Assembly (NCBI GenBank): GCA_964016885.1
Contig: OZ024745.1
Coordinates: forward strand, 99,572,001-99,636,000
DNA length: 64,000 nucleotides
Reading direction: 5' to 3'
DNA from: Eledone cirrhosa
Lineage: Eukaryota
The notes under the pieces were generated by a model that ran no database searches, was not told the DNA's origin, and worked only from the letters and a program-made list of their open reading frames with translations. The translations under genes and the position numbers were made by a program. This document shows positions 2,029-57,516 of this stretch, in pieces (positions within the stretch are counted from its first letter, which is position 1; every line of letters starts with the position of its first letter).

Positions 2029-2273
2029 AATTATTAAGGCCAGCTATTACAACAGAGCCATACATGGTACATACATATTAGCTCCAAGGACCAACTTATT
2101 CAACCAGTACTGATGAAAATGAACAGAATCAACAAGTTGGTCCTCAGAGCTAACGAAACGTATGTAGATGGTATGGCACCATTGTAGTAATTGGCCTTAA
2201 TAATTATATTAAAACTCACCCTACAGACTTGAGTTGCTTTATAACTTGGATATTTTTACCTACCTATTACTAC
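2029..2273 (+). mobile_element. Older Penelope-like remnant: diverged ~75-bp inverted repeat plus ~68-bp tail
   Basis: aattattaaggcc...ggaccaactt / aagttggtcc...ggccttaataatt arms; degenerate hammerhead 3' half GTTGGT-loop-GCTAAC GAAA CGTATG TA; CTGATGA at 2110; (TA)n on both sides. Confidence 0.5.
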
Positions 2274-5200
2274 TATATATATATATATATATAATGTATA
2301 TATACCATAAAATCCCTGATCAGCAAAACATACCCCCTTTAAGAAAACCCACTGTATGAATAAGAAATGTGTTATATGTAGAATAAATCCTCAAATAAAT
2401 TGTAAAACTAGAAATGTAGTCTATAGTATAAGATGTATAGAGGGTACTTGCAGAAAGACGACGACATACATAGGTGAGACAGCTCAAAGCAAATGATAGA
2501 GAATAGACCAACACTGGGGGAATTAAAAGGACAAAAACATGATGGTAATATAAACAACATAGAAATTAAAATAATATCTAAACATAGAAATGACTCAACA
2601 GGTAGACAAATAGAGAAGCAACTGAAATAAAACTAAGAAAACCAAAGATGAACAGAAAAGATGAATGGAATAACAACAACCAAACACAAACACACAATGC
2701 TGACCTAAGATAAATATAAATAAATAAATAAATATACACAAGTACAATAACAACAACCACACATGAACACACACTAGCAAACAAAGATAGAATACAAACA
2801 CACATAGACTCAGACATGAACACACACACACCAAACAGAAAGCACACATGCAAACACATGCGGAGACAGAGACAGAATAAATAAATAAATAAATAAAATA
2901 AAAATGGCATAGACATTACAATACAATGGGAGGAAACATAATAGTACCATTGATGATGTCACAGGTGTGTGATGAAAGAACTTTGATAGACTATATATAT
3001 ATATTTATATCTGTATTTTTAACTGTTGGTCAATCAATGATAAACATTGATTGCCAGATAAATTAACTATGGAGATATAAAAGATACAGAAGCGAAAAGC
3101 AATCCAAACCAAACAGTGAGTGTGTTTTATTATTATTTCTGGCAATATTATAACAATATGACCCTCCCCAAATATAACAATATAAATATATATATGCATG
3201 CACATATATATATATATGCATGTACATATATATATGCATGTACATATATATTATATTATATGCATGTACATATATATAATATATGTATATATGTATGTGT
3301 GCGTATGTGTGTGCTTGCGCATAAAGCTGAAGTTTTATTGTGCTTCTCTGAATTTGGGATTTAAAAATCTATCAGGCAAGAGAGATTATCAAATAATATA
3401 TAGTACTAAGTTAAATTGTTTAACTGCCACTCAACGACGTTAGTATATATCTAATAGAGGTACATTTAGATATATCAAACACAAAATTACAAATATTTTT
3501 CTTAATAACTAAACATCCGTAAGAGATCATAGATAACAGACTAGATTAGGTGTTGAACTACCAGTGGAAGATTTGGCAGGGTGTCATTGAAACTTAACTG
3601 TCATATTGTTCAGTTATCTTGACTGTAAATAGCTGTAGTAAGTAGTTACAAATGAGAATGATATATGGTGTAAGATAAGACTTAAAAGAGCACTTAGAAA
3701 TTAAAATGTCACTTGGAATTGAATAGTTAATTTAATGATTTTGTGGAAAGAATTGGTACAAGAGACAAGGAATAAATATGGTAGGAGATGTGAGTAGAAA
3801 ATGTTAAAATATTCCTTGGTGTTATTTGTTGTTATCAAAGAGAGAGATGACATGTAAAATATATGGTATTATAACTTTTCTATCCTATACAAAATAATTT
3901 AATTACAGCCTGGCAATTTTAGACAGCATAATATATATACTAAAACTCTGTGATTGTGTCTTGTCTAATTCAATACAGCCAAAACAGCGCATAATGGGAA
4001 AATACTTTGAAAGGAAGTTGCCCCAGAGATGGGAATACAAATGGAATAAAACAAGTTTTGCGTAAATCAGAGCACAGGTTCCCGAGATACAGGAATTTTC
4101 CGGGTACCTTCATAAATAGAGAGAGAGAAAGATATAGTGGTTGTGAGAGAGAGAGAGAGAGAAAGATGTAAAAATTTATTTTTAAGTGAACATGATTTTA
4201 AAAATATTTTTAATGAACATGACCCAACATGTCATAAAAACTGTTAGTTAAAAATTGCAATATATCAATAATAAACCACACAATAAAAACGAAAGGTATT
4301 TCTCAAACGTGTTCTAGCTAAGAAAACTTATATTTATAGCCTCTTTAACATCAATATTTTGCTCAATACTTCCTCAGTAGAACTGCGTCCCTGTGGAATT
4401 CCTGTCCTTACCATGTGACATGATCACAGCTTAAAATACTCAGAGACTTATGTATGTTTATCATATATATATATATATACTCAATATGCTTCATATATGC
4501 CTTTATTCTGAATTATGCTGTGTTGGGGGTATTGCTTATTAATACTAGCCTGTCAATCCCACACTATATGCCAATAAGCCATCAATGAAACTGTATTATT
4601 TGCAAAATCTTTATATAAGAAGCAATAGTTTCTTCACCTTAATACTGAGTGACTAAACGTCCCTGATAATGGATTAGTAATCCTGAAATACCAGTATTTG
4701 GCATTCTCACATGCTTTCAACAACAGGTAAATATTAAGTAAATTAATTTTACATTGTGGGACTGAAAAGGTTATAGTTCGAAATTACTAATATATAAAAA
4801 GAACTGATATTGAACTCATCTGTGAAAAAAAACTATAAAGGAATTGAGGAGTTTAGCACGTACGAAGTTATTAGATTTAAAACTAAAGCATCTAAGTCAC
4901 TTAATTGTCTAGGCGAATTTTAAAGCAGTTGTTCAGAATACTTATAATCAAAGGCTTCTCACATGTTGCTGTTTGGCAAGCTGATATCTTTTGGGATACT
5001 ATTATTAAATTTTCAACATTTCTACAGTGAAAGCACGAAGTAGTCATCTGAAGTAGGGGTCTAATTTTGGTATACAGTTGAAGCTAAGAAAAACAGAGAC
5101 ATTAAATAATCTCATTCGCCAAAAAATTCATGGCAGAAGCCACGAGCGTATTTACAAAGGGAAGTAACAGTTAAAAGTTATTCAGATTAAGTAGCAAGGG

Positions 5201-6829
5201 AGATAACTTACTAAAAACTGTTAACTCCTTTTAACAAGTTATCTGAATGAGTTTTACGTGTGAGATGTGGTTAAATTCTGGTCAAAGCTTGGAATAGTCT
5301 AATCGTGTGGCCGTACAAACCCCATCTTCTGTCCACTCAATAACTGATTAGCTAAGAACATTGTCTACAACAACTCAGTAAACACCAATACCTCTTCAAA
5401 AGCTTACATAAGCATCACATCTAAACACTTTACAAGTGTTTTCAAGATTTCATAGAATCTCTGAGAACAAAGGAATCAGATGGTGAACTATTTAATCATA
5501 GAGCAAGTAAATAATCAAAGTTACTCAATTATTATTCTTACTGTGTTACACATCAAGCAATCTTTAGTTTATATAACACACGAGAAAAGAGCCTTGTGAG
5601 TGACCTTCCACAACTTTTTATGGCAGATAATGAGGATATTGAACATAGCTAATTCAAGTGGAAGGTGAGGACACAGAAAGATTATTGCCACAGTACTTGA
5701 CCAGTATTGACTCAGGAAGGATGGAAGACAAAGTTGAGCTTAATGGGATTTCAATGCAGAGAATTGGAATGAATACTGTAAAGCAATATATCTAATGTTC
5801 TAATGAATCTGTAGATGAGACAAATTTCTAAATCTACTACATATTCTTTAATTAAGTTATCTAAGACATATGGAAAATAGAATTTATCTAACCTACAAAT
5901 AAAGGTATAAAAACAAATGTAATGCTGAATTTTAATTGAATACATTATAAATTTAGAAAACTGTTTTTCTATTTCATTGTTTTATTTTTTTAGAAATATG
6001 AAATGTATGTATTTCATCTTTATGCATGGAAATCAGAAGCCTCAGTTTGAAACTTAATATGATTCTAAGAAAAGAAAATGTTATTTCTCTATTGAAACCA
6101 TATATTTCAATTCAAGAATGATATAATAAAACCTACCATTAAACGTCAAATGAGTGCACCATTTAGATGTGACAATATCTAATGAAAAAAAAAGTTTCTC
6201 AAACCTACCACAAATATATGAAATGATTGTAAGAATATCCATGGAATAAGTAAAAAAATCACCAGATTCTAAGTAAAAAAAGATATATATAAAGACTTGT
6301 CTTTTAACAGAAGGAAGACTAATAGATTTGTGAATAGAAAACATTGTGCTTGTTTCATTCACATTAAATGTTTTCAATATACTATAAGAGAAAATGATAA
6401 TTATTTAAATCTATGCCTGGAAAACGTTTTTTTTATATCTTTGAAGTTAAATAAATACATAAATATAAATTTTGAAAAAATGAATTTAAAAAAAAAATAC
6501 ACTTAAGGACACTGCTCCCACAATCCTCCTAGGAAAAAGTGGGGAGAAGAAAAAAAAGGTTAAATTTTTTTACCACAATTTATATTTACTTAATCTTATT
6601 TTAAATCAATTAAACTTTATTTTTCTTACATCACAATTACAATAACTTTGTATCTAATAATAAGCTAATTTTGCAACCATCCTATGAAACTATTGTCAAT
6701 TTTTTAAACTATCGATATTTTAATTTAACAAAAAAATCTCACATATTCCATACTTTCATTGATTGGAAGGTCAGTAATCTTATATAATTTACATGCATTC
6801 TTAAAATGTTACAGTATAATGCTCTATAT

Positions 6830-7155
6830 AACACATGTGGGCATGCCAACAAAGTCAGAAAACAGCACAGCTCCCATGCCTTTTTTCACACTCAGAGTTG
6901 CTGAAGCATGGACCAAACTACCTGCATCAGTTATTAGCTGTCAAGACACTGCATCCTTTAAAACTTCCATACTTCCTGAGATTCGCCAACACTACAACTA
7001 ATATTCCCCCTCCATACACACGCACACATATCATGACTCATACACTATTCACTTCCCTGACATTTGTATATTATTCTATGTACTATACATGCACATTTGA
7101 TGAGTTGTAGTGCACCTGAGCACTGTACACAATCATTTCATTATCATTATCATCA
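6830..7155 (+). mobile_element. CR1-like LINE 3' end
   Basis: FFTLRVAEAWTKLPASVISC..SFK plus the shared UTR. Confidence 0.85.
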
Positions 7156-9114
7156 TAACACCAGCTAATTTATAATGACATAAATAGTCTGTATGATATA
7201 ATTGTTTCTAACATAGGCACATGGCTAGAAAATTAGAAGGGAGGAGTTAACTAATTAAATCAAGCTTAGTCCTTGAGTACTTTATTTTATTGACTCTGGA
7301 AAGGTGAAAGACAAAGTTGACCAGGGTAGGATTTAGAATTAGAACATAAATAACAACTAAATACTGTAAATTATATTCATGATATAATTACTAAGTAATT
7401 ATTGTTATGAAATATTTTTCCTAAAAGAAAGTGGAACAGTTATAATATGCCAGACTAATCTAGCACTGAATATTAGCATCAAGTAAGCTTTCCAAAATTC
7501 TTGAGTTCCAATAAAAATTGTCTTATGAAAAATTCTGTTTTACTTGAATTAAAAAAATAATTCCTAAGTTTTAGTTATATTTACATTTAACAGAAAAAGT
7601 TGCTTTAAAATGGTTTTAAGGCCAGAACCATTAAACAACAAAGCAAATATGTACATATAGTTAGTGACTGACTGTATTTGGTCACAGATGTGAAATGGTA
7701 GCAAAACTAGCAAAATCTGAAAGTGAACAAAAAAAAAAAAAGATTTGAGTTGGTGGCAGCAAATAAAATATTTTTTTATTTATCTATTTATTTTTAAAAA
7801 TAAAAAATGCTGACTAGTCTCCACTCACTCCCACTTCCTCGTCACTTATATTCTTCCTTCCTATTCCAGTACAATAATGCTCAGACATTTTCCTGACTGA
7901 CAGTTTACAAAACATAAAATGTACTTCCTGTGGGGGTGTTCCTCTTGTCATTAACCATAGTTCACTGGAAGCATGAGGAAAGAGGGTGAAAATTATATAC
8001 AGTGACAGTACCATACCCTAAAGGGATTTAAAATAAACCATCCCTGAAGCTCAGTAACAAATACCAGATATATAAAAGTGATAGTTTAATATCCAATATT
8101 TCTCCCACTGGAGCCCTTATAGGGATGTATAAAATCTAATATTTGCTACAATTAAAACAATGTACATTTCCCTAGTCATTTAAGATGAGAAGCTAACACT
8201 ATGAATTTTTTGATTTCTTCCTTTTAGCTTTTTGTAAAAATATATTAATATATAACTGTTTATTTTGAATATGTATATTTTGGTTTTTGTTTTCTGGAAA
8301 GAAAGAAAGTGAGAGAAAAAAATAGCACAGGAAGAGAAGCATGAGAGATAGAGAGAACATTTTAGAATTCTTTTACTGGTTTCAGACACTAGACTGAGAC
8401 CATGCTGGGGTACTGTTTTCAAGATTTTTTCTAGTTTTAGTTGATTATATCTACCTCTGTACACACCTTTATTAAAGTCTAGTATTTATTTTATTAAATT
8501 GTCAAACTACTAAGTTATGGGACATAAACAAACAACAGTATAAACACACATATGATGGGATTCCATACAGTTTCGTTCTACCAAATTTCACTCACAATGT
8601 TATAGTAAAAGACAGTTGCACAAAATACTACACAGTGGGACTGAACTGGAAGTCACGTGGTTGCAAAGCAAACTTCTTAACCACAGAGACATGTCTGTAC
8701 CTATATAAAGTACTGTTTATAAATTGTTTCTGTTGCTGGTAAAGAAAATAATCCTTATAGTATTACCAATAAAAACTTAAGGAAAAAAGATTGATAATGG
8801 TAAAATATTTCTCACCAGAATAAATAAAAACAATGAAAAAAAAAATGCAAAATTAATGAAAAGATAAAAATAAAGCTGAGTTCATGCTTTGAACAAATGA
8901 GAAATAATGGGTGTTGTTTGTGTGTTTCAGATGGAACCAAGGAAACACTGTTCCATTGCTGAGAGCATATGCCAGTCACAAACTCTGGTAGAAGGAGGTG
9001 GGATTTGAACTCAAAGCACACAGAGCATGACCAAATACATAGAAGTTGTTAGCATTTGTTACCTAAGTGACCTCATCAACACAGTGGTGGGGGGGGGGGG
9101 GTGCTTTGAAAGTG

Positions 9115-9570
9115 TGATAACAGACTAGAAGAAGTTTAGGGAGCCGGTACCTCTGCTGACAAGAAAGGGTTTTTCTCTCAGAGTGAAGATTAGAGTGTAA
9201 TATGCCTTTGTGTAAACTGCAAAGCTACATGGCAGTGAGACATGGGCCTTGATTGCAGAAGACCTACAAAGGCTAAAAAGAAATAAAGCAAGTATACTTC
9301 GATGGATGTGTAATGTTAGTGTCCATGAATGATGCAGCATAAGTAAGCTGAGAGAAATACTTAGAATAAGAGGATCTGGATATAATGTGCAAGAGAGAAG
9401 ACTGCATTGGTATGGTCAGGTGATGTGTATGGGAGATATAGCTACATAAAGTGCAGAGAAATCTTAGTGGATGGGACTTGTGAAAAACCAAACCTTATGA
9501 CAAATAGGACAAAAGACTGCAAGGGTTAGCATTATGCAGTACTGGAGAAGACTTGCCTCGCAGCATAGGG
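9115..9570 (+). mobile_element. Decayed RTE LINE fragment
   Basis: KKFREPVPLLTRKGFSLRVK, LHGSETWAL and RRLHWYG motifs with stops. Confidence 0.8.
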
Positions 9571-11055
9571 GAGATGATGTGACCCACCACCACCACTGCT
9601 AACACTCCTTAATAGAAATTCTTACCAGCACTGTACACCCTCACCCAACTCCTCATATATCATAATACATCAGTCATAACTCGCTAGTAGCTGTTGGTAT
9701 AACCACCAGCTCCCCTAACACTCATCACTGATAAATCCTATCCTATGAAACCATATTTATCTTCCTTCCTGAATGATTGAAAACCTTTACTGCTGGTGCC
9801 ATAACAAGCACACCCAGCACATTGTAAGGTGGTTTGTGATAGGAATAACTTCCAGCTATAGGAACCATGCCAAAAAGGGTTGAGAGGACCCTTCAGTTGT
9901 GTCAAAGGCAGGACAACTTCTCTAGTGCTGACTACACAATAAATGCATCCACTACACAAGGGTATAAAACCTGGCAGCTTGTTATTGTTAAGTGAGTTAC
10001 TTTACTCAATTATACCTGCATCCACACACAAACAGCAGTAGAGAAAGAAATGTCCAATAATATTTAATTGCTCTTTTATATTCTGAATTTACTTTACAAA
10101 CTCTAGTGGGAAGGAAGGTAAATTAAGTATTAGGCAAGTACTAAGATTAATTCAATAAAATAACTAATGTATGTCCTTGTACCACTAACAGTAGAGCATC
10201 GAACAAGTTCTACCCATGTTAGCATGGAAAATGGACGCCAAACGATGATGTTACCTTGTTGAAGACCAGCATACCAGTCTACACTCTCTATGCCACCAAG
10301 ATACAGTTCAGCACAAGTGATGTCACAACTCACTTCTAAAGCTGACTGAATTAAAGAAACATGAAATAAAGTGTATTTCTCAAGAACACAACACTTCGCC
10401 CAGTTTGGGAATCAAACTCTCAACCTCATGATTGTGAATTCAATGCTTTAACCACTAAACCACACATCTACTATTTTTGCAGTAGATTGTCAGAAAATTC
10501 GACAAAATACTTAGCAGTATATATTCACAGTCCTTTATATTCTGTGTTCAAATGTTACTACGGTCAACTTGCCTTTCATTATTCTGGGGTCAGTAAATAA
10601 AGTACCAATCAAGCACAGGGGTTGGTGTTAACTTATCCCTCCCCACGAAAGTGCTGGTCTTGTGTCAAAATTAGAAACCACTATTATTATTAGGGAAGTG
10701 AGTAGCAGAAATGGTACAGTGCTTGTATTTAATTACATTCCAAGTTGAAATCCAGCTGTCGTTAATAAAAAAAATAGTAACAGTGATGTATGATGTGGAG
10801 ATCCAATTAACTTTAACCCTTTTCTTATGAATTCATGTTTCAATATCCTTATCATCCTTACAGCTGGTGGTGGCTAGTCAAAGTGGTAGAGTCTTTGTAG
10901 TATTTAGCTATACCCTTTTACATTCAGAGTGCAAATCTCATCTCTGTTCATTGGCTTTACCTTTCATCTCTCTGGAGGCTGATAAAACAAGTACCAGGCA
11001 TATTATGAGATTGATTCAATCATTTAACTTTAACATACTGTTGATTTCATGAGTC

Positions 11056-11263
11056 AATGGTTTCTTATATAGGCACAAGGCTAGAAATTTTGGGGGAGAG
11101 GAAAGTCAATTTAATCGACCCCAGTGCATGACTGGTACTTTATTTTATCGACCTCGTGAGGATGAAAGGCAAAGTTTACCTCAGTGGGATTTGAACTAAG
11201 ATCATGAAGGGCCATAACCTCTATGCTGCAAAGCATAGTGTCTGATGCTCTACCGATACTGCC
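11056..11263 (-). mobile_element. SINE family A (long variant)
   Basis: Reverse complement of the family body. Confidence 0.85.
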
Positions 11264-11919
11264 AAGAGCCTCTGCATTGTCATTTGTCAGGCTAGAAACA
11301 GCAGTCAAATCTCACTCAAATCACATTTTTCAGTCTTCAAAAACCACATATTGGATGATGTGGTCATGGATTCCCTGCATATAGGAAAGAGATGATACCC
11401 AATGAACGTTGACTTAGGGTTAAACAATAATAATAGCCATTTCAACTATGTGTTTGTTCTAACATATATACTCCTACAAATAATATTTAATATAGTATTG
11501 TATAAATAAGTGTGCCAAAGTGTGGAATCAATATTTCTATTGTTAATATAACACAATATTAATTCTTAACATCCCATAATAATTTAGCAGAAAATATCTA
11601 AAAAATGGGTTTGTTAATTCAAATGTTTATAGTATCTTTACTAATGGATATATTATTGTGAAAATTTGCAATACACAAAAGATTTTAATTATTTATGTGA
11701 TGCAGTCATTGTGCTGTGTTGCACTTTCAAGAATGTCTTGTTAATGTACTTTCATGTGATGCAACAATTGTACTGTTTTGTACTATCAAGAATATCTTGC
11801 TAATATAGTTTCATGGAGTACCTAACATTAAGGGTTAATATAACTACCATACATATTAAACATTTAATATAGTTGAAATAGTTGTGCAAATTAGTGGGAT
11901 AGCTTGAGGTCTTCTTCAT

Positions 11920-12092
11920 AATTTTGGCACAAGGCCAGCAATTACCAAGTGTATTACTGGTACTTTATTTTATCGACCCCGTAAGGATGAAAGGCAAAGT
12001 TAACCTCGGCGGGATTTGAACTCAAATCATAAAGGGAGGTAACTCTTTGTTGCAAAGCATGGCATCCGACCCTCTACCGATACTGCCAATCC
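11920..12092 (-). mobile_element. SINE family A
   Basis: Reverse complement of the family body. Confidence 0.85.
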
Positions 12093-12316
12093 CTTCATAA
12101 TGTTAACTATTCAACAATGAAATTGAGAGCAGAACCTATTTTACAGTTCAGTAAACTGAAGCAAGCTGAGCATGAGGTTGTTGATCTTTAGCAAATAGTA
12201 CAAAGATTGCAACAGTATCAGCAAATATGATGATTGATTTCACTATAAATTATATTTTTAAAGATAAGAAAAAATAACTCAAGTTTGGAAATATCAAGTC
12301 AAAGAAATATTGGTTA

Positions 12317-12957
12317 GGGCGGTGGATTGGCAGTATCGGTAGAGGGTTGGATGCCATGCTTTCTAGCATAGTTACGTCCCTTTACAGTCTGAGTTCAAAT
12401 CCCGCCGAGGTTAACTTTGCCTTTCATCCTTACGGGGGTCGATAAAATAAAGTACCAGTAATGTACTGGTAATTGCTGGCCTTGTGCCTAAAATAGAAAC
12501 AATTATTATTAGCAGTGGATTGGCCGTATTGGTAGAGCATCAGACATGCTTTGCAGCATATAGTTACGTCCCTTTACATTCCGAGTTCAAATCCTGCTGT
12601 GGATAGCTCTGCAGGGTCGATAAAATAAAGTACCAGTCATGCACTGGGGTTGATTTATTTCGACCCTATCCCCCCAAAAAATTGCTTATATAAGAAACCA
12701 TTATTATTATTATTATTATTATTATTAAATAAGGTGGTGGATTGGCAGTATTGTTCGAGCATTGGATAACATGCTTTGTAGCATTGAGTTATGGACCTTT
12801 ACGTTCTGAGTTCAAATCCTGCTGAGGTTAGCTTTGCCTTTCATCCTTACAGAGTCGATAAAATAAAGTGCCAGTAATGTACTGGGGTTGATTTAATTGA
12901 CTTTCCCCTCTCCTCCAAATTGCTGGCCTTATGCCTATAGTAGAAATCATTATTATT
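12317..12957 (+). mobile_element. SINE family A, three consecutive copies
   Basis: Same head and body motifs, separated by (ATT)n. Confidence 0.85.
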
Positions 12958-14299
12958 AAAGTTGTGATGGATCAAAGTGATAGAATGATCAAAGTGATAA
13001 AATCTAGTAGAGTGCTATTTTCTTTTTAAATGAAAGTTTTAGGATTCAGCACAGAAAATTAATGTGATTATATGTATATGCCTATGCATAGATGTATACA
13101 CAAATGCATAGATATACATACATGTATACATATCAAAAGTGGGAAGAGAAAACTGAATTAAAGCAGTTTCTTCAAACAGAAGATTAAAACAAAAACATAA
13201 ATCATCTTCAAGGAAGACAAATGTTTAACAACAAATGGAAACTAAAGCTGTTGAAAGGATATAGAATAAAACTGAAAATTGAGGAAAGCTAAGAAAATAA
13301 CTAAAAATATGGTTTAGATTAAAGCAAGCAAGAATAACCTTTACAATCCTTTAACTTCAACCATTTGATATTCTTGAATCTAGTCTAGGTAGGAAGTGAG
13401 TGATATTTGATAGTTCAACACAGGTTTCTTTCTACAAAGGAGAATGGCAAGCAGAATTACATTTTTGAATCTAGTTCTGCAACTGATAGCTCCAAACTTA
13501 TTGGGATAGAAATAAACAGAAACAAATGAAAGAAGCCTACCATTTCACTATCTATAATTGGTAGGAAATATATACAACTTGAGTAAGATCATGAAATACA
13601 CATGAAACTAAACATATTCACAACTAACAATTTTAGAGAGAGAGAGATATGTCAGACTGATGAACTACAGAAATAACAATTCCTCAGTGAAAAGCACATA
13701 TTCGACAGATGAAGATAGGATTTGTTAACTTATAAATTCATAGATATCTCTAATGAAAATAGAGCTACAAATTTTGGGAAAGGCAAGGAAGTATATAGTT
13801 CTTTCCCAATATAGTCTATCTTGGATCATATTATCAAAGTATTTCTTTTTTTTTTTTTTTTAATGATAGTTAGGTCCCACCCTTGCAAGCAGGGAAAAGC
13901 GGATGTAAAATGATGATGATGATTAGGTGTGATTTGAGATTTGGCTGCTACTTCTAGCATGTTGAAACAACCATATAGCGGTTCTTGTTATTGTCTTTGT
14001 ATATTGGGAATTGCGAACTTTAGATTTAGTTGAGAAATTTTTTTTACTTAATGTTGGTCAGCAACGGCAAAAGAAAAATGTATATGTCGAGTAAATAGTC
14101 AACATACTGGACTATCTTCAGGGTTAAATACAAACTGAAAACTTTATAGACTATTTTCTAAACTGAAGTTTCTTTCTTAGCTGAACCCAAATATATATAT
14201 GTCCTACAACTAAGATTTACCATTTCTCTCCTTTTTCATAAACTTAGACAGTTGAAAAGGTATCTGACATTAGGCTGGGGAAAAAAATATGTACTTGGT

Positions 14300-15210
14300 G
14301 GGGGTTCAATTACTAAAATCCTTCAAAGCTGGCTCTTTCTACCTCCAAACACTTAGCACAGCAATCCTTCCACTGTTTGAAGCTAATCTGGAATGCTTCT
14401 CTCAGAATTGTTCTCATGGTAACTATATTTTGGGAAACAACCAGAAGTCATAGGAGCTCCGTCAAAAGAGTAGAGTCTGGTAAATGAACAAAATACCTTT
14501 CTTAGCCAAGAAACTTTAAATCAGCTGTGAAGGAATGAGCTAGGGCGTTATGATACAATTGCCAGTTTTGTGAGGCCCACAGATCCAGTCAGTTATGCAG
14601 CTCTGCATGACAAAGATAGAGGACTTCCTAATAGAATTTCTTTTATAACTCTTAGTGAATTCTCATGATAGACAATACTTTGGTAGTTAAGAATGTCAGC
14701 ATCACCTTAATTTTGTTCTGCACTTGACGTGCAATGCTGAATGCTTTTCTGGGTCTTACTCATACACCAATGTTTGAACTTCAAATATCAGTATTATGGA
14801 AATGAGGATCTTTGTTGAACTTAAGAATCTTGCACAACCTCAAGACGAAGTTGTTACTCCTGAGACAGCAGCTTGGGTACACATTTCACTGCCATTCTAT
14901 GTTTGCACAAACTCTCTTAAAATTGCATGTGAAGAGTCTTAACTAGTCTCAACATCATCAACCGATTTCCATGCCATTAGATGCTAATCTTTCATTATCA
15001 AGTTCTGCTCTTTTTTTAAAATAACAACTACATTGAGGCTTGTTGATGGCTTCCTGGAATGTTGATCACTCTTCATCAACGTAGAGCCATCTTTGACCCA
15101 GCTGTATCATTCTTTTATTTGAGTAACACTCATGGCATTGTCACCAAAAACTTGTTGAATTTGGTGAATTGTTTGCTTTTGGCAAAATATGATGCAAGAT
15201 TGCTGCTTCA
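14300..15210 (-). mobile_element. Heavily decayed mariner (DD34D-type) transposase remnant
   Basis: Minus-strand peptides CIIFCQK, QQVFGDNAMSVTQIKE, RMAVKCVPKLL, ARQVQNKIKVMLTF, WQLYHNALAHS and AFQISFKQWKD appear in mariner order. The ends are not resolved. Confidence 0.75.
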
Positions 15211-15485
15211 CATGTTGCATGATCATGGGTGAAATAAAATGCAACTAGTAAGTAGTACAACACCCCACACACTGGCTGCCTAACAGAAACTGATGCATCC
15301 AACAAGATTGCCAAAAATGCAGCATATGCATCAATGTATGTGGCTCCCATTTATTTCCCACAGGGAAAATTAAAGTTGGATATTTTTTTATTTTTTTAAA
15401 CTGTTTGTCCCTCTCTTTCTGCCTGACCATGTTTAAGATATAACAACCATTAATTTTCTACGGCTATGTAAATGCCACTCATATA

Positions 15486-28430: not shown

Positions 28431-28850
28431 CTGTAAAAAAGAGAAATATGAAAAAGATATTAAAATATTTGTAAAATTAAATAAATACAAATTGATATAT
28501 AGTAACAAGTTTCTTTAAATAACAAGAAATATAAAAAAGAAATTAAAATATTTGTAAAAATATATATATATAATATAAATATATATAACAAATATATATA
28601 GTAACAGATTTCTTTAAAAAATTTTCAACCAAAATAAAATAAAAATAAAATGAAACTCAATCTTATTATATATCATAAATATATAAGTGAAATTGCATTA
28701 GTCTTAATTGCATTCATATTCACATAATATTGTTTTGAAAATAAATTTGATTTATTTCAAAACTTGGCTCTAAGAATAGCCTTCCTAAAAGTTGCTTAAT
28801 ACTATTGGTCTCTTATCTGAACCCAATTTTAAAATGCCATATATATATAA

Positions 28851-33242: not shown

Positions 33243-33282
33243 CCAACCCACACTATAAAGTGGTTCCCCTGGAGACTCAAAA

Positions 33283-33904: not shown

Positions 33905-33936
<32 letters not shown>
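33283..33936 (+). repeat. 46-bp minisatellite (~10 units) inside an RTE-tailed repeat
   Basis: Unit GCACCCAGTCCACTGTAAAGTGRTCATRTAGGTGTCACTACTATAA at 33371, 33417, 33463, 33509, 33555, 33601 and 33647; ends with GTTAAGCGATGATGATG. Confidence 0.9.
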
Positions 33937-33937
<1 letters not shown>

Positions 33938-34539: not shown

Positions 34540-34562
34540 TTAATGAAGTTTCACCACATATT

Positions 34563-37278: not shown

Positions 37279-37620
37279 CATCATCATCATCATTTCATTT
37301 TACGTCCGCTTTTTCCCTGCTTGCAAGGGTGGGACGGGAACTGATTCTGGCTTGGTTTCTACAGCTGGATGCCTTTCCTAACACCAACCTCATTTACAGT
37401 GAGTGCTGGGGGTTTTTTGCCGTGGCACCTGCACGACCACTTTGTAGTGGAATGATATGGACCCCAGTCCCTATCATCTCATTTCTACAGCTGAGTAAAC
37501 TGGAGCAATGTGAAATAAAGTGTCTTGCTCAAGGAAACAACACATCACCCGGTTTGAGAATTGAACTCACAACCTTTCGATTGCAAGGTCAATGCTCTAA
37601 CCACTAAGCCATGTGCCTCC
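37279..37620 (-). mobile_element. SINE family B
   Basis: Reverse complement of the family. Confidence 0.9.
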
Positions 37621-37752
37621 AGTTAGATTTGGAAATGGAGGATTACATTGAATTCCTACATAAGTAAATAACATTGTACTGAGAGCTTGAGCATATGAGG
37701 GCATGTATATATATGTGAGTGTGTGTATGTAGAGAGAGAGAGAGAGAACAAC

Positions 37753-37846
37753 ATTTAATATAGAAATGGCTTTTACAGGACTAGAACCGTTTCATTTGAA
37801 GGAATGTATTGAGTACCTTACTTATTTCCGATTGAACCCGGGACTC
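37753..37846 (+). mobile_element. Second Penelope-like family: inverted pLTR piece fused directly to a tail piece
   Basis: 37753-37804 is the reverse complement of the hammerhead-side arm; 37805-37846 matches the tail (tgtattgagtacctt...gattgaacccggga). Flanked by (GA)n and CA/TA repeats. Confidence 0.6.
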
Positions 37847-37988
37847 ACACATATATATATTTCACAAAGATTGCATAACTGCCACAATGATTGCATAAGC
37901 ATCTGACAAAGTCACATGAACAACCATGTAACAGAAATATAAACAATTATGGTGATTTAATCCTGTCTTAACTAGCATTATTTGATAA

Positions 37989-38300
37989 AGGGCGGAGGAT
38001 TGGCAGTATCGGTGGAGGGTCGGACGCCATGCTTTCCAGCATAGTTACGTCCCTTTACGATCTGAGTTCAAATCCCACCGAGGTTGACTTTGCCTTTCAT
38101 CCTTACGGGGTCGATAAAATAAAGTACCAGTAATGCACTGGGTAATTGCTGGCCTTGTGCCTAACGTAGAAACAATTATTTGATAAATCTCTCCGACTTT
38201 GCCTTTCATCCTTACGGGGTCGATAAAATAAAGTACCAGTAATGCACTGGGTAATTGCTGGCCTTGTGCTTAAAGTAGAAACAATTATTTGATAAATCTC
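37989..38300 (+). mobile_element. SINE family A plus duplicated 3' half
   Basis: Full copy 37989-38180 with TSD-like ATTATTTGATAAA; 3' part repeated at 38195-38300. Confidence 0.9.
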
Positions 38301-38994
38301 TCTCTCTCGCTATATATAAATAAGAAAGAGAGAGAGTGGTGAGTGTGTATGTGCATATGTGCAAGCATATATATGTGTGTGTTATAATATTGTAGTATAT
38401 ATTTGCTAGTATAACTGCAGTGTTGTGTACTGTTTATTTTACTATGTATTATCCAACAGCAACTGCCATTTCAAAAACATTCAAGTAACCCTGCAGCTTG
38501 TTTGTTAACAGCCTCAGTAAGCTACATATTAACCAAGTTCTCAGCATACTGTAATAATAGTATAATTAATCTTAAAAAGACTTTGTATAACATGCTTACT
38601 GTTAGAGGAAATAAACAAATTACTAAGCTTTATCCCCAAAAGATGCCATGTTGTAATGCACTCATCATCATCACTGTTTTAACAGTTCTTGAAATGCACA
38701 TCCTTACAAGATTTCATTCTATTTGCAATCCCTAAAAATAGTAATGTTCTGTTACCTACCAAAAATAATACTAGCAGCCTGTTACTATATTCCTATATAC
38801 AATAGCAGCAGCAAGATAAGACCTCATAGCCAGGGCTGAGTCTCTTACTCTGCTGCTACATAAGACAATGCATAAATAAGTTTTTTTCATATATAACAAT
38901 CTTTCTTAACTGATTAGCAGGCTTGGTTAGATTATACTATACTGAAGAGGTCTAATAGACTGAAACAAGCCCGTAGTTGTTCTTTACTTGCATC

Positions 38995-39653
38995 GGCACA
39001 AGATTTGGGGGAAGAGTAAAGTCAGTTATATTAAATCAAGTACTTAACTGGTATTTTATTTTATGGACTTCAGAAGGATGAAAAGCAAAGTTGACCTCGA
39101 CAGAGTCTGAACTCAGAGTATTGTGTCTGATGTTCTAACAATACTACAAATCCACCACACTTTTACCTGTAAATAATTGTTTCTACTTTTGGCACAAGGC
39201 AAGCAATTACCCCAGTACATTACTGGTACTTTATTTTATCGACCCTCGTAGAGATGAAAGGCAAAGTTAACCTCAGCAGGATTTTAACTCAGACTGTAAA
39301 GGGTCGTAACTATGCTGCAAAGCATGGCATTCGACCCTCTACTGATACTTGTTTCTACTTTAGGCACAAGGCCAGCAATTACCCAGTGCATTACTGGTAC
39401 TTTATTTTATCGACCCCGTAAGGATGAAAGGCAAAGTCAACCTCGGCGGGATTTGAACTCAGATCGTAAAGGGACGTAACTATGCTTGAAAGCATGGCGT
39501 CCGACCCTCTACTGATACTGCCAATCCACCGCCCTACTGATACTGCCAATCGACCCTCTACTGATACTGCCAATCCACCCTCTACTGATACTGCCAATCC
39601 ACCGCCCTACTGATACTGCCAATCGACCCTCTACCGATACTGCCAATCCACCA
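38995..39653 (-). mobile_element. SINE family A cluster (three copies) with tandemly amplified 5' head
   Basis: Copies at ~38995-39160, 39175-39349 and 39349-39533, then repeats of CCCTCTACTGATACTGCCAATC to 39653. Confidence 0.85.
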
Positions 39654-39840
39654 GTGATGATGATTTTTTAAAAATACGACATATGCACAGTAGCTAGAGA
39701 GACAGGCAATCCCAAACAACATGTGGTACTGTCTGGACAGGGCCCCCCCCCCCCCCATTCACATGTTGGGCTCCATCAATGGAGATGATGGGCTGTCCTG
39801 GCATGTGTTGTGCAGATCTGATTAAAGGACACCCATTGCT

Positions 39841-40385
39841 TGATGATGATGGTGGTGGTGATGATGATGGTGATAGTGGTGGTAGTGATGATGGTGATAG
39901 TGATGATGATGATAATGGCGATGGTGATGATGGTGGTGATGGTGATGATGGTGGGAATGGTGATGATGGTGGGAATGGTGATGATGGTGGGAATGGTGAT
40001 GATGGTGGGAATGGTGATGATGGTGGGAATGGTGATGATGATGATGGTGGTAGTGATGATGATGGTGGTGATGATAATGGCGATGGTGATGGTGATGATG
40101 GTGGGAATGGTGATGGTAGTGATGGTGGGAATGGTGATGGTAGTGATGGTGGGAATGGCGATGGTGATGATGGTGGGAATGGTGATAGTGGTGATGGTGG
40201 GAATGGTGATGATGGTGATAATGGTGATGGTGATGATGGTGGGAATGGTGATGGTGGTGATGGTGGGAATGATGGGAATGGTGATGATGGTGATGATGGT
40301 GATAATGGCAATGGTGATGGTGATGATGGTGGGAATGGTGATGGTGGTGATGGTGGGAATGGTGATGATGGTGATGATGGTGATA
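39841..40385. repeat. (GAT/GGT)n trinucleotide-derived repeat with 18-bp unit GATGGTGGGAATGGTGAT
   Basis: Seen directly. Confidence 0.95.
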
Positions 40386-40689
40386 GAACCACAGGAAACA
40401 GAAGCCTAGAATGACAAAGATCTATGGAAAGATCTATGTTAGGAATTACTAAAAGACAAAACTTTTCAATGGATAAGAGAGAAAACAAAAGTAGAAGACA
40501 TAAAAGAAGAGAAAATGGAAGTAGGAAGGGGGACTATGGTTTGAACAAATGATAACAAATGGACACAGCTTACTGCACAGAATGAAGATTGAAAGGGACA
40601 GGTTCACAGTCATGGGAGACAGGGGCGAAGATGGGGGTATGAGAATAATGAGTAGCACCAGCCTAAGAAGGCCTTCCCTTTGTAGAGAG

Positions 40690-53966: not shown

Positions 53967-54156
53967 AAAATTTAATATAGAAATTGCTTCTACAGGACTA
54001 GAACTGATTCATTCGAAGGGGTTTCCTAATGATTTCCTTCGAATGAAACAGTCCTAGTCCTGTAGAAGCCATTTCTATATTAAATTTTGTTGTATACACT
54101 CTACTAATGTATTGAGTACTTTACTTACTGTGGTTATTCCCGATTGAACCCAGGAC
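53967..54156 (+). mobile_element. Penelope-like remnant, second family: ~53-bp inverted repeat plus ~68-bp tail, with hammerhead motif
   Basis: Arms 53967-54019 and 54036-54088; tail 54089-54156 ends at (TG)n(TA)n. Related pieces occur at 42810-42927 (+), 37753-37846 and 15976-16030 (-). Confidence 0.7.
54020..54070 (+). ncRNA. Minimal type-I hammerhead motif with a G5-to-A core mutation (probably inactive copy)
   Basis: GGTTTC / CTAATGA / T-TTC-cttc-GAA-T / GAAA / CAG-tcctagtc-CTG / TA / GAAGCC. Stem I has 6 bp, stem III 4 bp, and the cleavage triplet is GUA. The paralog at 42810 keeps TGATGA. Confidence 0.65.
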
Positions 54157-54168
54157 TTGTGTGTGTGT

Positions 54169-54220
<52 letters not shown>

Positions 54221-54344
54221 GTAGGAGGTGAGTTTTATTGTAGTACAATAAAGCAATGCAGATATCGGATAAGAAGCACTCTACAGTTTGTAGGACTGGA
54301 GTATACATAATATAAGATCAAAAGATGGTTAAAGGAGTTCCATG

Positions 54345-54415
54345 TATTTTATTATGCGCATTTCAAAAACAAACATCATCATGCAATAATATTTGTGTTT
54401 TCATCAGATAAAACA
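54345..54415 (-). ncRNA. Mirror copy of the same hammerhead ribozyme on the minus strand
   Basis: Exact reverse complement of 54541-54611 within the palindrome. Confidence 0.8.
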
Positions 54416-54540
54416 GGAGAACATGATATGAAGGCTAAAAAACACTTGTGGATAGTGCAGTCTTAAATCAACATATCATATATGTTGATTTAAGACTGCA
54501 CTATCCACAAGTGTTTTTTAGCCTTCATATCATGTTCTCC

Positions 54541-54611
54541 TGTTTTATCTGATGAAAACACAAATATTATTGCATGATGATGTTTGTTTTTGAAATGCGC
54601 ATAATAAAATA
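54541..54611 (+). ncRNA. Type-I hammerhead ribozyme with intact core and palindromic stem III
   Basis: Stem I TGTTTTAT(54541-48)/ATAAAATA(54604-11); CTGATGA 54549-55; stem II 54556-91 (15 of 16 positions paired including GU, GCAT loop); GAAA 54592-95; self-complementary ATGCGCAT 54595-602; predicted cleavage after AUA at 54603. Confidence 0.8.
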
Positions 54612-56012
54612 CATGGAACTCCTTTAACCATCTTTTGATCTTATATTATATATATATATATATATATATGCTGGAAATAATAATTTTATTAAATCCCTCA
54701 AAATTCTAAATTAGAACAGAGTGCATTTCATTTGAAATACAATCACAGAAAGTTGAACATAATCACATCAAAACACAAGGCTGATTTTCTGAATCTGAGG
54801 TACAATTTATCTGATGGGCTTCTTTAACGTCTCTGTCTACCTAGTTTCACTCACAAGGTTTAAGCTGATTTGAGGCTATGGTAAAGATACTTGCCCAAAA
54901 TGTCTTACACAGGAATTAAACCTGGGACCCAATGATTGTGAAGCCACTCAGTCACACACACACATACACAACTTGGTTAAAATTTTCGAAAACTGTTCTG
55001 ACATTCAAAGTGAAACAGGTTTTAGAGAAAGAGTAAAAGATTCTAACAATTTCTTTGAAGTGCTGGAGCACAAATGATGAATAAAAACTGAATAAAATAA
55101 GCAAGGAAAAAAAAAAGGATTAACATATTTGGTAAAAAACCAAAGAACTTATAAAGTTCAAAGGACTTTTCATCTGAAGAATTACATGTTGAAAAGTAAA
55201 ACATTTGTGGTATTAACAAGTAATGAATGAATCATGATTTAGGAGTAACATTTTTTAAAGGCAATCTCAAAGAATGGAAGATCACTGTATACTATGAAGA
55301 TGGAAGACATGTTTTTCTATAAAATAATTCCAAGCTGTTTTTAACCCCTTTGTTACCAACCCAGCCAAAACCGACTTTGGTTCTATGAAATAAAGTCACC
55401 CATTTTAAAGATTTCCAATTTAAATTAAAATCTTCCAACATAATTTTATATAAGAACCTTACATTAAATTACTGCCTTAGTAAAGAAATAATAATTTTAA
55501 TAAATCCCTCAAACTTCATTAATTAATTGAAACAGAGTGTATTCCATTAGAAATGCAGTCATGAAATGGTTAAGACTGTCTTTAAGATAATGAACAATTC
55601 AGTTTTAAAGTAAATGAATTCTGATGCTTCAAAATGTAATTTTTAACATTTGCTAATATATATACATATATATATCATTTAAGTTAGTTTCATTACTAGT
55701 GGGTAGAACTGATAGTTCTGGTTGGTAAATCATGATGTAACAAATCAATCAAAGCACTCAACGTTATGTAAGTCATACATCATAGATATGGTATCTATTG
55801 GTTGGTGTAGGAATGGAGTAAAGAATTTATTTAATTACAACAGAATGCTGGACTGGAAAATTTGCGGAAAATTCTAAAGCAAATTTTCCAGTCCGGCCTT
55901 CAGTTGTTTAATAAATGTGTGGGTGTGTGCGCGCGCGCGCGTGCGTGCGTGCGTGCGTGCATGCGTGCGTGCGTGCATGCGTGCGTGCGTGCGTGCGTGT
56001 GTGTGTGTGTAA

Positions 56013-56229
56013 AATAATGGTTTCTTATATAGGCACAAGGCCATCAATTTTGGGGGAGAGGAAAGTCGATTAAATTGACCCCAGTGCATTACTGGTACTT
56101 TATTTTATCAACCCTGTGAGGATGAAAGGCAAAGTTAACCTCGGCGGGATTTGGACTCAGATCATAAAGGGCCGTAACTATGCTGCAAAGCATGTTGTCT
56201 GATGCTCTACCAATACTGCCAATCCACCG
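56013..56229 (-). mobile_element. SINE family A (long variant)
   Basis: Matches 11056-11263. Confidence 0.85.
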
Positions 56230-56711
56230 TGCTCAATGGGTGTGTGTGTGTAAAATAATGTCACATAAATACACGCGCGCGCACATCCGAGACAGAGAGA
56301 GCAAAATATGGAAAAAAAAACAAAAACAGTTCAAGACAGAAATGAAGAAATAAAAGATAAGAGGAGAAAATGAGGGAGGAGAGATAAAGAAAAGAAAACC
56401 AAAAATATAACATAACAAAAGAAACAAAGGTGGTGAAAGAAAATATATGAAATCATTTTTAAAAATGAGAAAACAACAAAACAGAGGGGGATGCTGATAC
56501 AAAAGCAGTGAGCTTCAAAAATGAGAAATTTGCTGTGACATTTAAATTTATGGCCTATTAAGAGAATAATTTGGTTGGGTTGGAGAAGTTATGATAATAA
56601 GCCAGCAGTAATTGTACATTCAGAATTACAAATACCAATAAAAATTTACATAAGTCTTCTGTTAATGAGTGATCTAAAAAGACATTTTTCAGACTACTGG
56701 TTCAAATATAA

Positions 56712-57078
56712 AATAATAATAATAGAATTATTGTGTACAGTGCTCAGGTGCACTACAACTCATCAAAGGTGCATGTATAGTACATAGAATAATGTACAAA
56801 TGTCAGGAAAATTAACAGTGTATGAGTCATGACATGTGTGCATGTGTATGGAGGGGGAATAACAGGTATAGTGTTGGCGAATTTCAGGAAGCATGGAGGT
56901 TTTAAAGGATGCAGTGACTCGACAGCTAACAACTAATGCAGGTAGTTTGTTCCATGCTTCAGCAACTTTGAGCATGAAAATATGTTTCCGAAAATCATGG
57001 GAGTTGTGCTATTTTCTAACTTCGTAGGCATGCCCACGTGTGTTAGACACATTGAATTCCAAAAAGGTGCTCATGGTT
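56712..57078 (-). mobile_element. CR1-like LINE 3' end
   Basis: VAEAWNKLPALVVSCRVTASFKTSMLPEIRQHY. Confidence 0.85.
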
Positions 57079-57155
57079 GTAAGTGCTATTGTTATGAATG
57101 TTTGTAGTAAAGATGTAACTGGTAGTGATGTATTTGTTGAAACAGATATTGTTAT

Positions 57156-57393
57156 GATTAGAAATAGAAGCTTTCGCCATATTTTTGACTAAAGAAATTT
57201 TAGCCTGATAATGGGGCTCAGAACCCTCTAAGAAATGGAAAAAGATGAGTATTGATGTCAATAATCATCTTTTTCCAATTCTTAGAGGGTTCTAAACTCC
57301 ATTATTAGACTAAAATTTCTTTAGTCAAAAATATGGTGAAAGCTATTTCTAATTTCAAACTCGCCCACCGTTTCAAAACATAACTTACTTGTT
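57156..57393 (+). mobile_element. Inverted repeat (~98-bp arms) plus 40-bp tail between 12-bp direct repeats; Penelope-like insertion
   Basis: The palindrome 57157-57353 has a few mismatches. AGATATTGTTAT occurs at 57144-57155 and 57394-57405 (candidate TSD). Confidence 0.6.
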
Positions 57394-57516
57394 AGATATT
57401 GTTATATTTGGGGAAGGTCATGTTGCTCAAATATTACCAGAAAAATATAGTAAAACACACTCACTGTTTGGTTTAGTTTTCGCTTCAGTATATCTTTACA
57501 TTTCTATAAATAATTT

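Follow-up and report, generated by a model that had tools for sequence, protein, structure and literature searches.

Hairpin-plus-tail palindromes in the Eledone cirrhosa genome as a footprint of Penelope-like elements

The hairpin-plus-tail layout that recurs in the stretch of Eledone cirrhosa DNA analysed here (64,000 nt; hereafter the window) is a real, genome-wide footprint of Penelope-like elements (PLEs). Our preferred reading, which we hold with good confidence, is that three of the five families represented (A, B and D) are truncated ends of Hydra-clade PLEs, that the other two (C and E) are protein-less and likely carried by PLEs, and that all of them were likely made by two primed cDNAs. 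Every family is dispersed in the genome, with 795-4063 first-look candidates each, and scaling from 59 insertions in 800 kb gives an estimate of ~200,000 insertions, in agreement with the high density of the original prediction. Recognizing them fixes an annotation problem, since annotation would otherwise take these short palindromes for MITEs, SINEs, miRNA precursors or tRNA-Ser genes. For the most part, the pattern is the usual debris of PLEs; new here are a probable tRNA-headed lineage of PLE passengers, a covarying hairpin at the start of the tail, and the pairing of one tailed with one tail-less arm.

Layout, target sites and protein-coding parents

Palindromes with a one-sided tail were found for all five families, as predicted, but the complete layout of inverted arm, direct copy and tail is present in only five of the ten copies in the window (Table 1). 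Genome-wide, an inverted arm stands beside the direct copy at 16 (A), 28 (B), 22 (C), 28 (D) and 24 (E) of 30 loci per family. The tail, optional and confined to one side, spans the interval between two 3′ ends, as in EN+ PLE insertions, for which the arrangement of inverted copy plus tail has already been published (PMC8557442, Fig. 2 legend). The arm boundary is fixed, with variable arm length, in A-D, whereas it varies more in E. Within the window, sequence links join 44721 to 50781 (B), 53967 to 42812, 37747 and 15976 (C), and 54220 to 52727 (D). The families had been described as unrelated in sequence, which is not wholly the case: B and C have 27 nt in common at the tail start (E=0.002, though shuffled sequences reach this in 22/500 cases), and A-D share a tail hairpin. 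The copies at 37-57 kb lie inside a likely intron, and, judging from sequence, intronic 99% palindromes such as that of D are plausible dsRNA or editing substrates. Another EN fragment is also present in the window.

Table 1. Copies of the five families in the window
Feature	Positions	Strand	Description
Family A	2022..2273	+	inverted arm (palindrome 2022-2212, 70%), 5′-truncated direct copy, ~60-nt tail to 2273, (TA)n
Family B copy 1	44721..44852	-	inverted arm ~12-15 nt, direct copy, tail, TA repeat
Family B copy 2	50781..50963	+	palindrome 50781-50886, tail 50887-50963, TA flanking both sides
Family C copy 1	53965..54158	+	palindrome 53967-54088, tail to 54158, tail hairpin at 54098
Family C copy 2	42812..42928	+	direct copy and tail, without inverted arm
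Family C copy 3	37747..37847	+	partial tail fused to inverted arm
Family C copy 4	15976..16022	-	tail fragment alone, TA repeats on either side
Family D copy 1	54220..54646	-	99% palindrome 54310-54646, 89-nt tail 54220-54309, tail hairpin at 54302
Family D copy 2	52727..52817	-	tail only
Family E	57157..57393	+	palindrome 57157-57353, ~40-nt tail; truncated copy of 260-bp tandem unit
E target-site duplication, left copy, 12 bp	57144..57155	+	
E target-site duplication, right copy, 12 bp	57394..57405	+	

The predicted anchoring in microsatellites is above chance and above both SINE controls: TA was found at 70/81 arm ends, compared to 7/91 and 9/17 for the SINEs and 170/5000 for random positions. 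Insertion into (TA)n, as in the Hydra clade, was seen for A, B and D. The exception in the window is the E copy, which sits without a microsatellite in another repeat and is flanked by the 12-bp duplication. One of the two SINE controls is itself TA-associated about half of the time (9/17).

The PLE origin holds for A, B and D, which run into a reverse transcriptase (RT) together with a C-terminal GIY-YIG endonuclease (EN). RT/EN sequence lies in line upstream at 3/30 A, 13/30 B and 13/30 D loci, and long copies have frames that are open over 429 and 477 aa; extension in the 5′ direction gave none belonging to C or E, so that the description of the families as non-autonomous applies to C and E only. 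The three families have a single ORF with RT followed by GIY-YIG, represented in A by broken EN/linker pieces only. The motifs found (RWR, DKT, YRDD, CxCx5C, and CxxC..E..N..CxH) are of Hydra type and agree with section 11 of PMC8557442, whose supplementary Hydra references were compared by eye. The N-terminal RWR and DKT were read in B, the fetched D and A copies ending short of that region, while the CxCX5C linker and the CxxC and CxH around E and N, with no CCHH, are exact in B and D, and the A linker is one residue longer in the alignment. The parent ORFs gave no match against Pfam and PDB. On the strength of these motifs, A, B and D are assigned to 5′-truncated ends of autonomous PLEs of the Hydra clade, whose hammerheads, targeting of (TA)n and Octopus representative, Hydra-1_Obim, were described before (Craig et al. 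2021, PMC8557442). On this assignment, the window copy of A would derive from the 3′ end of an old PLE of Hydra type, B copy 2 from that of an autonomous one cut within hammerhead stem II, and D copy 1 from that of a young autonomous one. Neptune, our first reading, and Nematis were rejected because the CX2-5CxxC linker and the EN CCHH are missing from B, D and A, and Naiad because it needs an N-terminal EN without hammerhead, the EN here being C-terminal.

Arm pairing and the tail hairpin

Copies of every family end at one of two 3′ positions, with or without the tail, and 69/72 B pairs and 24/26 D pairs combine one tailed arm with one tail-less arm, which points to two separately primed cDNAs. 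Junctions vary between copies, indicating that each insertion forms its palindrome anew, and the 5′ ends of each family cluster in a ~10-nt window, which lies at about -140 in B, -135 in C and -260 in D, counted from the tail end. In the mechanism we propose, the (TA)n target would be cut in both strands by the endonuclease, a separate cDNA would be primed from each DNA end, and microhomology would join the two cDNAs. The two 3′ ends would represent two internal RT start sites, such as a Poseidon element uses in vitro, and the 5′ pile-up would represent run-off at a transcription start within the pLTR, so that the full-length mRNA itself would shed short stubs. Initiator-like words occur at the 5′ pile-ups. 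Both-strand cutting and two RT starts have been observed in vitro for Poseidon PAc of Anolis (PMC11167929).

The inverted arm could instead arise if a single cDNA, or an antisense template, folded back and primed itself, a route favoured for rotifer Penelope elements in the discussion of PMC3846280. Fold-back also predicts the near-symmetric majority of pairs (arms within 15 nt in 63/72 B and 17/26 D pairs), and it would suit junctions located on short palindromes (in E, CATG at five loci and ACGT at five, downstream of the T loop, and TCGA at none). However, a tail is not copyable from a tail-less cDNA, nor is a longer tail-less arm from a tailed one; arms differ by more than 50 nt in 8/72 B and 5/26 D pairs, and the tail-less arm exceeds the tailed arm at two loci, L026 and L181 (2.6 kb versus ~0.3 kb at the latter). 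We thus consider fold-back unlikely and favour two primed cDNAs.

A conserved hairpin begins 0-8 nt past the tail-less end in A-D and is lacking in E. This covarying RCTC..GAGY hairpin, placed where the tail starts, recurs in no fewer than eight families as well as in a coral Hydra element; outer pair and inner stem were both present in 39/105 matches collected by sequence only, as opposed to 1/83, 2/82 and 1/91 in shuffles. The overall stability of the tails is not above that of shuffles (z -0.09 to -0.79), and in D the hairpin is not part of the minimum-energy fold. It may serve as a recognition signal of the PLE protein. These features touch on the open question of how the inverted ends and the tails of PLEs arise, and the strict arm pairing, the sharp 5′ run-off points and the tail hairpin make it testable in vitro with the RT-endonuclease of the young, TA-targeting family D.

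Protein-less families C, E and F

Family C is a 524-bp non-coding unit that carries a hammerhead and whose longest frame is 87 aa; copy 1 in the window is a short form of it. Its left end gave 36 matches, 33 of them adjoining a microsatellite. Two upstream walks and six extended regions stopped at this fixed left end with no ORF, RT/EN sequence was found upstream at 0/30 and 1/60 loci, the single match belonging to a neighbouring B or D element, and no C copies were seen in tandem.

Family E consists of tandem units of 260 bp that carry a complete tRNA-like cloverleaf and lack a hammerhead. The head scores 44 bits with the Rfam tRNA model (gathering threshold 29), is called as a tRNA by ARAGORN at 7/10 loci, and has A and B boxes that are preserved in F, an older, collinear sister family with inverted arms at 15/30 loci. 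Arrays reach ~4.1 units with circularly permuted starts; 12 E arms start at unit positions 41-57 (tRNA +1 being position 51), and a T5 run directly follows the tRNA. There are two fixed 3′ ends, TA at the 3′ end in 24/30 loci, and no simple-repeat tail. No parent was found in 60 E and 30 F loci, the one RT/EN match upstream of 60 E loci again belonging to a neighbouring B or D element, nor was a partner element found for C, E or F; a Naiad-type PLE may be the partner of E. C and E are likely protein-less elements carried by PLE proteins, E being likely an undescribed kind of passenger with a tRNA-like head in place of the ribozyme. The head would set the RNA start, by Pol III initiation or an RNase P cut, and tandem or circular templates would yield the arrays of up to ~4 units. 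Against E as a Pol III product, the T5 run should stop Pol III ahead of the RT start sites.

The likeness of E to B hammerhead stem II is weak (1/500 shuffles). In F, words like CTGATG/CTAATG occur in no more than 7/25 copies and without A9, so that a relic of the 5′ hammerhead core is not claimed. An RT stop at m1A58 is a weak idea that the E junctions fit but whose pattern F does not show. Three E motifs sought in the Craig 2021 supplement were absent.

An improbable alternative holds that E is an ordinary tRNA SINE mobilised by LINEs, or else a satellite of tRNA pseudogenes, and that its arrays arose by DNA-level tandem duplication, in keeping with the complete tRNA-like head and its two boxes, the missing PLE partner and Hydra tail hairpin, and the TA association of the second SINE. 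This does not account for the two fixed 3′ ends, the inverted arms of E and also of F, the TA 3′ ends or the permuted starts; a LINE-type 3′ end, that is, one fixed end with a simple-repeat or A tail, is not what E has, and neither SINE control occurs among the palindrome-plus-tail clusters. Returning to E as a PLE passenger, a wider proposal, to which we give slightly less than an even chance, is that E and F form a long-lived SINE-like lineage moved by PLE proteins, in which the tRNA fold would take the hammerhead's place as the element that promotes transcription and directs processing of tandem or circular RNA, and that the RCTC..GAGY hairpin would be a clade-wide signal, from corals to octopus, for template recognition by the Hydra RT and for two cDNAs per insertion. 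If tRNA-headed passengers of PLEs are real, the PLE machinery would join LINEs, LTR elements and the ribozyme-bearing Sm-alpha type as the fourth class to host parasites of Pol III type.

Hammerheads and relation to known systems

The self-cleavage sites predicted in four families are there (GUA in A and C, GUC in B, AUA in D), but a complete hammerhead is found in the window only in the two arms of D copy 1, where it is of type I with an AUA site and a palindromic loop III (cores at 54407, minus strand, and 54549, plus strand). The 5′ core is absent from the window copies of A and B, that at 44721 keeping only the GAAA-GUC half, and the C cores are mutated or cut (mutated in copy 1). By descriptor, 10/30 A and 30/30 D copies have a full hammerhead (shuffles 0-1/300), and 0/30 short B copies have the 5′ core, the B 5′ ends falling within stem II; the descriptor also scored 0/30 long B copies owing to a stem II mismatch, and the B hammerhead was called by eye, in long copies. 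No hammerhead was detected in E by Rfam or by strict or relaxed descriptors on both strands. Rfam reported no hammerhead family among the best 150 of 341 matches in the window, nor at four loci with full hammerheads, and descriptor matches within the S2 SINE were treated as chance. The inverted arm of D is predicted to bury its hammerheads (+98.8 kcal/mol), which argues against active ribozyme mini-elements. The inserted stubs would thus be mostly dead, with half ribozymes or whole ones predicted to be buried, and calling the families ribozyme-bearing was an overstatement.

The original prediction took all five families for independent, non-autonomous, ribozyme-active (retrozyme-like) mini-elements, copying themselves as hairpin-plus-tail units. 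Short copies do predominate with uniform 5′ ends, D short copies are 99% alike with the hammerhead complete in all 30, and C and E are non-coding. Set against this, A, B and D run into RT/EN, palindromes arise afresh with every insertion, short B copies lack the 5′ core by descriptor, E has no hammerhead and that of D is predicted to be buried; moreover, the likeness to retrozymes fails, E being tandem without a hammerhead and C having a hammerhead but not being seen in tandem. The mini-element reading is largely refuted for A, B and D and, for the five together, quite improbable. That the palindromes are MITEs, fold-back elements of DNA type or products of misassembly around (TA)n tracts can practically be dismissed: the inverted repeats are near-perfect, at TA sites, and alike in size in D, but the tail is one-sided, arm length varies where MITEs need a fixed size and terminal inverted repeats at both ends, polarity is towards the RT/EN frames, and the opposite-strand and go-back joints of E recur in independent short-read contigs (presence only, in three contig sets of one sample).

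Among known systems, the Hydra clade (PMC8557442) shares with the PLE ends described here the RT with C-terminal GIY-YIG, the RWK-like, DKT, CxCx5C and CxxC/CxH motifs without CCHH, the hammerhead near the 3′ end, the (TA)n target, and the inverted 5′ copy with tail. The families here differ in their ~1-kb 3′ UTRs, tens of thousands of copies, tails of 60-90 nt rather than the quoted 30-40, the U3-A8 cores of A and B, and the tail hairpin, which the main text of PMC8557442 does not mention; the hammerhead of Hydra-1_oBim matches none of A-E, which are other families. Poseidon PAc (Frangieh et al. 2024, PMC11167929) likewise has two internal RT starts defining the tail, an AT-rich target, cutting and extension of both strands, and a stem-loop at the start site, and does not need its hammerhead for insertion. 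It belongs to another clade, however, its stem-loop is AC-rich, unlike the RCTC..GAGY hairpin, and the tailed/tail-less pairing is known here from genome copies alone. Solo PLE hammerheads and those on opposite strands (Cervera and De la Pena 2014, PMC4209133) are similarly dispersed by the thousands from truncated PLEs, with opposite-strand pairs 100-700 bp apart, a U3-A8 core variant and a palindromic loop III; the relevant passages of that paper name no mollusc, and most stubs here are half ribozymes.

For E, the closest likeness is to Sm-alpha and Sj-alpha of Schistosoma (PMC2770079, PMC6765202), which are tRNA-derived, SINE-like and often tandem, with a likely Pol III head. Sm-alpha has an active hammerhead, whereas E has only a GAAA half-core, together with the PLE signature of inverted arm and two ends. 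Metazoan non-LTR retrozymes, according to the passages on them in PMC7229834 and bioRxiv 10.64898/2026.07.22.740005, are non-coding tandem units of 170-400 nt tied to PLE pLTRs, with a hammerhead needed in each unit and no tRNA heads in those passages; E fits in size (260 nt) and tandem form and C in its hammerhead, but neither in both. Finally, the TRIMp3 elements Helenus, Ajax and Cassandra (Kojima 2024, PMC10886601, in whose text 'Penelope' has 0 occurrences) resemble E as a non-autonomous, non-LINE class with a small-RNA-derived Pol III promoter and tandem arrays, but, unlike E, they depend on LTR retrotransposons (PBS, PPT, LTRs).

Layout, abundance and setting

Masked self-comparison of the window recovered all five palindromes with a one-sided tail, and the family links between the window copies were confirmed in the same way. 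The families are named here A (at 2022), B (44721 and 50781), C (53967 with its relatives), D (54220 and 52727) and E (57157). The original prediction had given all five families this layout and had placed the tail ends mostly at microsatellites. The complete layout is present in only 5 of the 10 listed copies, and the E copy has no microsatellite there, its insertion being flanked by a 12-bp target duplication instead. That the repeats form a dense population was borne out: in the 3.0-Gb genome (the window is 33% GC and rich in TA/CA tracts), a search returned 795 (A), 2175 (B), 4063 (C), 725 (D) and 2345 (E) first-look candidates, of which 40 per family were scored and 30 fetched. Eighty evenly spaced 10-kb stretches (800 kb) held 59 insertions (33 B, 13 C, 8 D, 5 E, 0 A), scaling to about 124,000, 49,000, 30,000 and 19,000 for B to E (from small counts in a sample unweighted for contig size).

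A (TA)4 tract lay within 15 nt of the arm 3′ end, an arm being the direct or inverted copy in a palindrome, in 70 of 81 arms of the 800-kb sample (83 minus two with a short flank; paired arms of one insertion are non-independent). The controls gave 170/5000 for random non-repeat points, 7/91 (3′ ends) and 7/80 (5′ ends) for SINE S1 in that sample, and, for SINE S2, 4/17 raw 3′ ends, 9/17 once its own tail was removed (p 0.004 against arm ends) and 11/22 5′ ends. The TA association predicted for the tail ends is genuine and exceeds both SINE controls. About half of the ends of S2, a tRNA SINE, likewise show a TA association, unlike those of S1. In the 800 kb, 23 palindrome clusters have TA at one side.

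Since a Fringe-like exon lies on the same strand about 278 kb upstream of the last exon of a chondroitin synthase-like gene, the window from 28.5 to 64 kb is likely one intron. The family copies at 37–57 kb likely lie within it, so that the D arms (168 bp, 99% alike) would pair in the pre-mRNA.

Further features of the window
Feature	Position	Strand	Remark
Tail hairpin	54098	+	
Tail hairpin	54302	-	
Tail hairpin	44790	-	
Hammerhead-like core	38942-38975	+	CUGAAGA, stem II, GAAAC, GUA; outside the five families
Broken GIY-YIG endonuclease fragment	2290-3180	+	CxxC pairs, CCH-type core, then non-coding to TA repeat; looks Neptune-like and distinct from family A
Local palindromes	15482-15629, 18234-18547, 18809-18964, 55825-55916		some with one-sided tail; outside the noted families
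SINE S2	53060-53432		with kin
Chondroitin synthase-like last exon	26877-28514	-	546 aa, PF05679
RTE-like LINE fragments	49447-50230, 51291-52280	-	presumed from translations
Tc1/mariner-like transposase fragment	21594-21951	+	presumed from translation

Parental elements and hammerheads

Walking upstream led from A to broken endonuclease sequence, from B through a 3′ UTR of about 1.1 kb to RT-EN frames, and from D through about 1.0 kb to a young frame that stays open over 477 aa at locus L181. In-line RT/EN matches were present in 3/30 A, 13/30 B and 13/30 D loci, those of B and D having been picked with upstream queries. The RT/GIY-YIG ORFs expected on 5′ extension were thus reached in A (broken), B and D. 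Upstream of C (1/60 and 0/30), E (1/60) and F, an older sister family of E (0/30), the single matches are neighbouring B or D elements, and no autonomous partner for E was found in the loci examined. Of the proposal of non-autonomous derivatives of Penelope-like elements (PLEs), the non-autonomous status therefore suits C and E but not A, B and D, which continue into RT/EN.

Long C copies have a fixed left end, adjoining a microsatellite in 33 of 36 matches, and a continuous 524-bp body with a longest frame of at most 87 aa. C carries both hammerhead and tail hairpin, no tandem copies were seen among the loci examined, and by its structure the family is judged non-autonomous. A variant at four loci (L380, L381, L382, L384) shares the left ~370 bp but ends in another tail, where a separate hairpin-like motif (GAGC) is present.

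The parent proteins contain RWR, DKT, YRDD, CxCx5C and CxxC..E..N..CxH, without CCHH; Pfam and PDB searches of the parent ORFs gave no match. Those motifs are the Hydra clade diagnostics, and the clade is described as having hammerheads and inserting into (TA)n (PMC8557442, section 11). Hydra-1_Obim, listed in the supplement of that paper, appears by eye to be a different family from those described here. It is highly probable that the finding as framed is of a known kind, namely Hydra-clade PLE stubs in TA repeats; beyond these, what appears new against the literature searched is the E/F lineage with its tRNA head, the hairpin in the tail and the pairing of tailed with tail-less arms. Other Hydra-type families occur at L182:1254-3434(+), L186 and L184 (one open frame of 727 aa), their 3′ ends carrying variant hammerhead cores.

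A structural descriptor (0–1/300 matches in shuffles) identified complete type I hammerheads in 10/30 A loci (U3-A8 core), 10/30 short and 9/30 long C copies, and 30/30 D loci. It found none in 30 long B copies, although visual inspection of B shows a U3-A8 core, a long stem II, a GUC site and pairing in stem I. Hammerhead cores in four families are thus upheld, although within the window only the D arms are complete. Rfam returned no hammerhead among the best 150 of 341 window matches listed, nor in four full-hammerhead loci. The U3-A8 variant and opposite-strand hammerhead pairs from truncated PLEs are already published (PMC4209133). In the D element the antisense arm precedes the ribozyme whichever strand is read, and forcing the hammerhead fold is predicted to cost 98.8 kcal/mol in the whole element versus 4.8 in the direct arm alone.

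Paired arms and the tail hairpin

Each family has two 3′ ends, one tailed and one tail-less, the inverted arm starting at the latter. Of the arm pairs, 69/72 in B and 24/26 in D combined one tailed and one tail-less arm; they were symmetric to within 15 nt in 63/72 and 17/26 and differed by more than 50 nt in 8/72 and 5/26. Formation of the inverted arm by self-priming, as described in PMC3846280, leaves unexplained the loci L026 and L181, where the tail-less arm is the longer. For a Poseidon protein, PMC11167929 describes that both strands are cut and extended and that two internal start sites bound the tail. We propose that a break in (TA)n would give two DNA ends, each priming its own cDNA, the two cDNAs then being joined through microhomology.

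The 5′ ends of the arms accumulate near −138 in B (176 arms mapped), −133 in C (102) and −258 in D (59), on initiator-like words. The pile-ups could mark run-off of the cDNAs at the RNA 5′ end. Such run-off is their likely cause, because PLE transcription starts inside the terminal repeat region, or pLTR (PMC2377424, PMC6765202).

A sequence-only pattern (NCTC, 7–22 nt, TN, GAGN, RC) matched 105 times in 800 kb; 39/105 matches combined Watson–Crick outer pairing with at least 3 pairs in the inner stem, versus 1/83, 2/82 and 1/91 in three shuffles. In at least eight PLE families the hairpin, built of RCTC, an inner stem, a bulge of 2 nt and GAGY, lies where the tail starts, mostly followed by a TA or CA run; inner stems differ, and the outer pair covaries (A-U or G-C). 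Folding predictions give this hairpin for the window tails of A, B and C but not for that of D, and the tails overall are not predicted to be unusually stable. The coral Hydra-2_Amil consensus ends in the same form. Neither 'stem-loop' nor 'hairpin' occurs in the main text of PMC8557442, and the literature search gave no paper on such a hairpin.

The tRNA-headed families E and F

The full E unit (260 nt) has a tRNA-like cloverleaf, called tRNA-Ser(GGA) in 7/10 loci (44 bits against Rfam tRNA) and lacking a long variable arm; a T5 run directly after it counts against a simple Pol III reading. E arrays are circularly permuted, reach about 4.1 units and include inverted arms. The two 3′ ends are at unit positions 212–220 and 253–260, and arm 5′ ends cluster in the tRNA 3′ part and at 41–57, around tRNA +1 at 51 (30 loci selected without the head, a few being two views of one insertion). 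Neither Rfam nor the descriptor found a hammerhead in E; a GAAA half-core lies after a stem that weakly resembles B stem II (1/500 shuffles). F (L397–L426; ~75–80% between copies) is collinear with E over the entire tRNA-headed unit and has an inverted arm in 15/30 loci. Because the Hydra tail hairpin is absent from E, the family may be carried by another PLE clade.

Our tentative proposal is that E and F could be a long-lived SINE-like lineage mobilised by PLE proteins, the tRNA fold replacing the hammerhead, and that the RCTC..GAGY hairpin could be a clade-wide Hydra RT signal launching two cDNAs, from corals to octopus. The literature searched held no tRNA-headed PLE-dependent element; a prior entry in Repbase, Dfam or the O. 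vulgaris library is possible, the last reportedly containing 893 unclassified young SINE families. Penelope families that are short and non-autonomous have been noted in butterflies and in Chlamydomonas (the latter in PMC8557442). Among the closest known elements, as far as the sources describe them, are non-LTR retrozymes (PMC7229834; bioRxiv 10.64898/2026.07.22.740005), TRIMp3 (PMC10886601) and Sm-alpha, which is likewise tRNA-derived and tandem but, unlike E, has a hammerhead (PMC2770079, PMC6765202).
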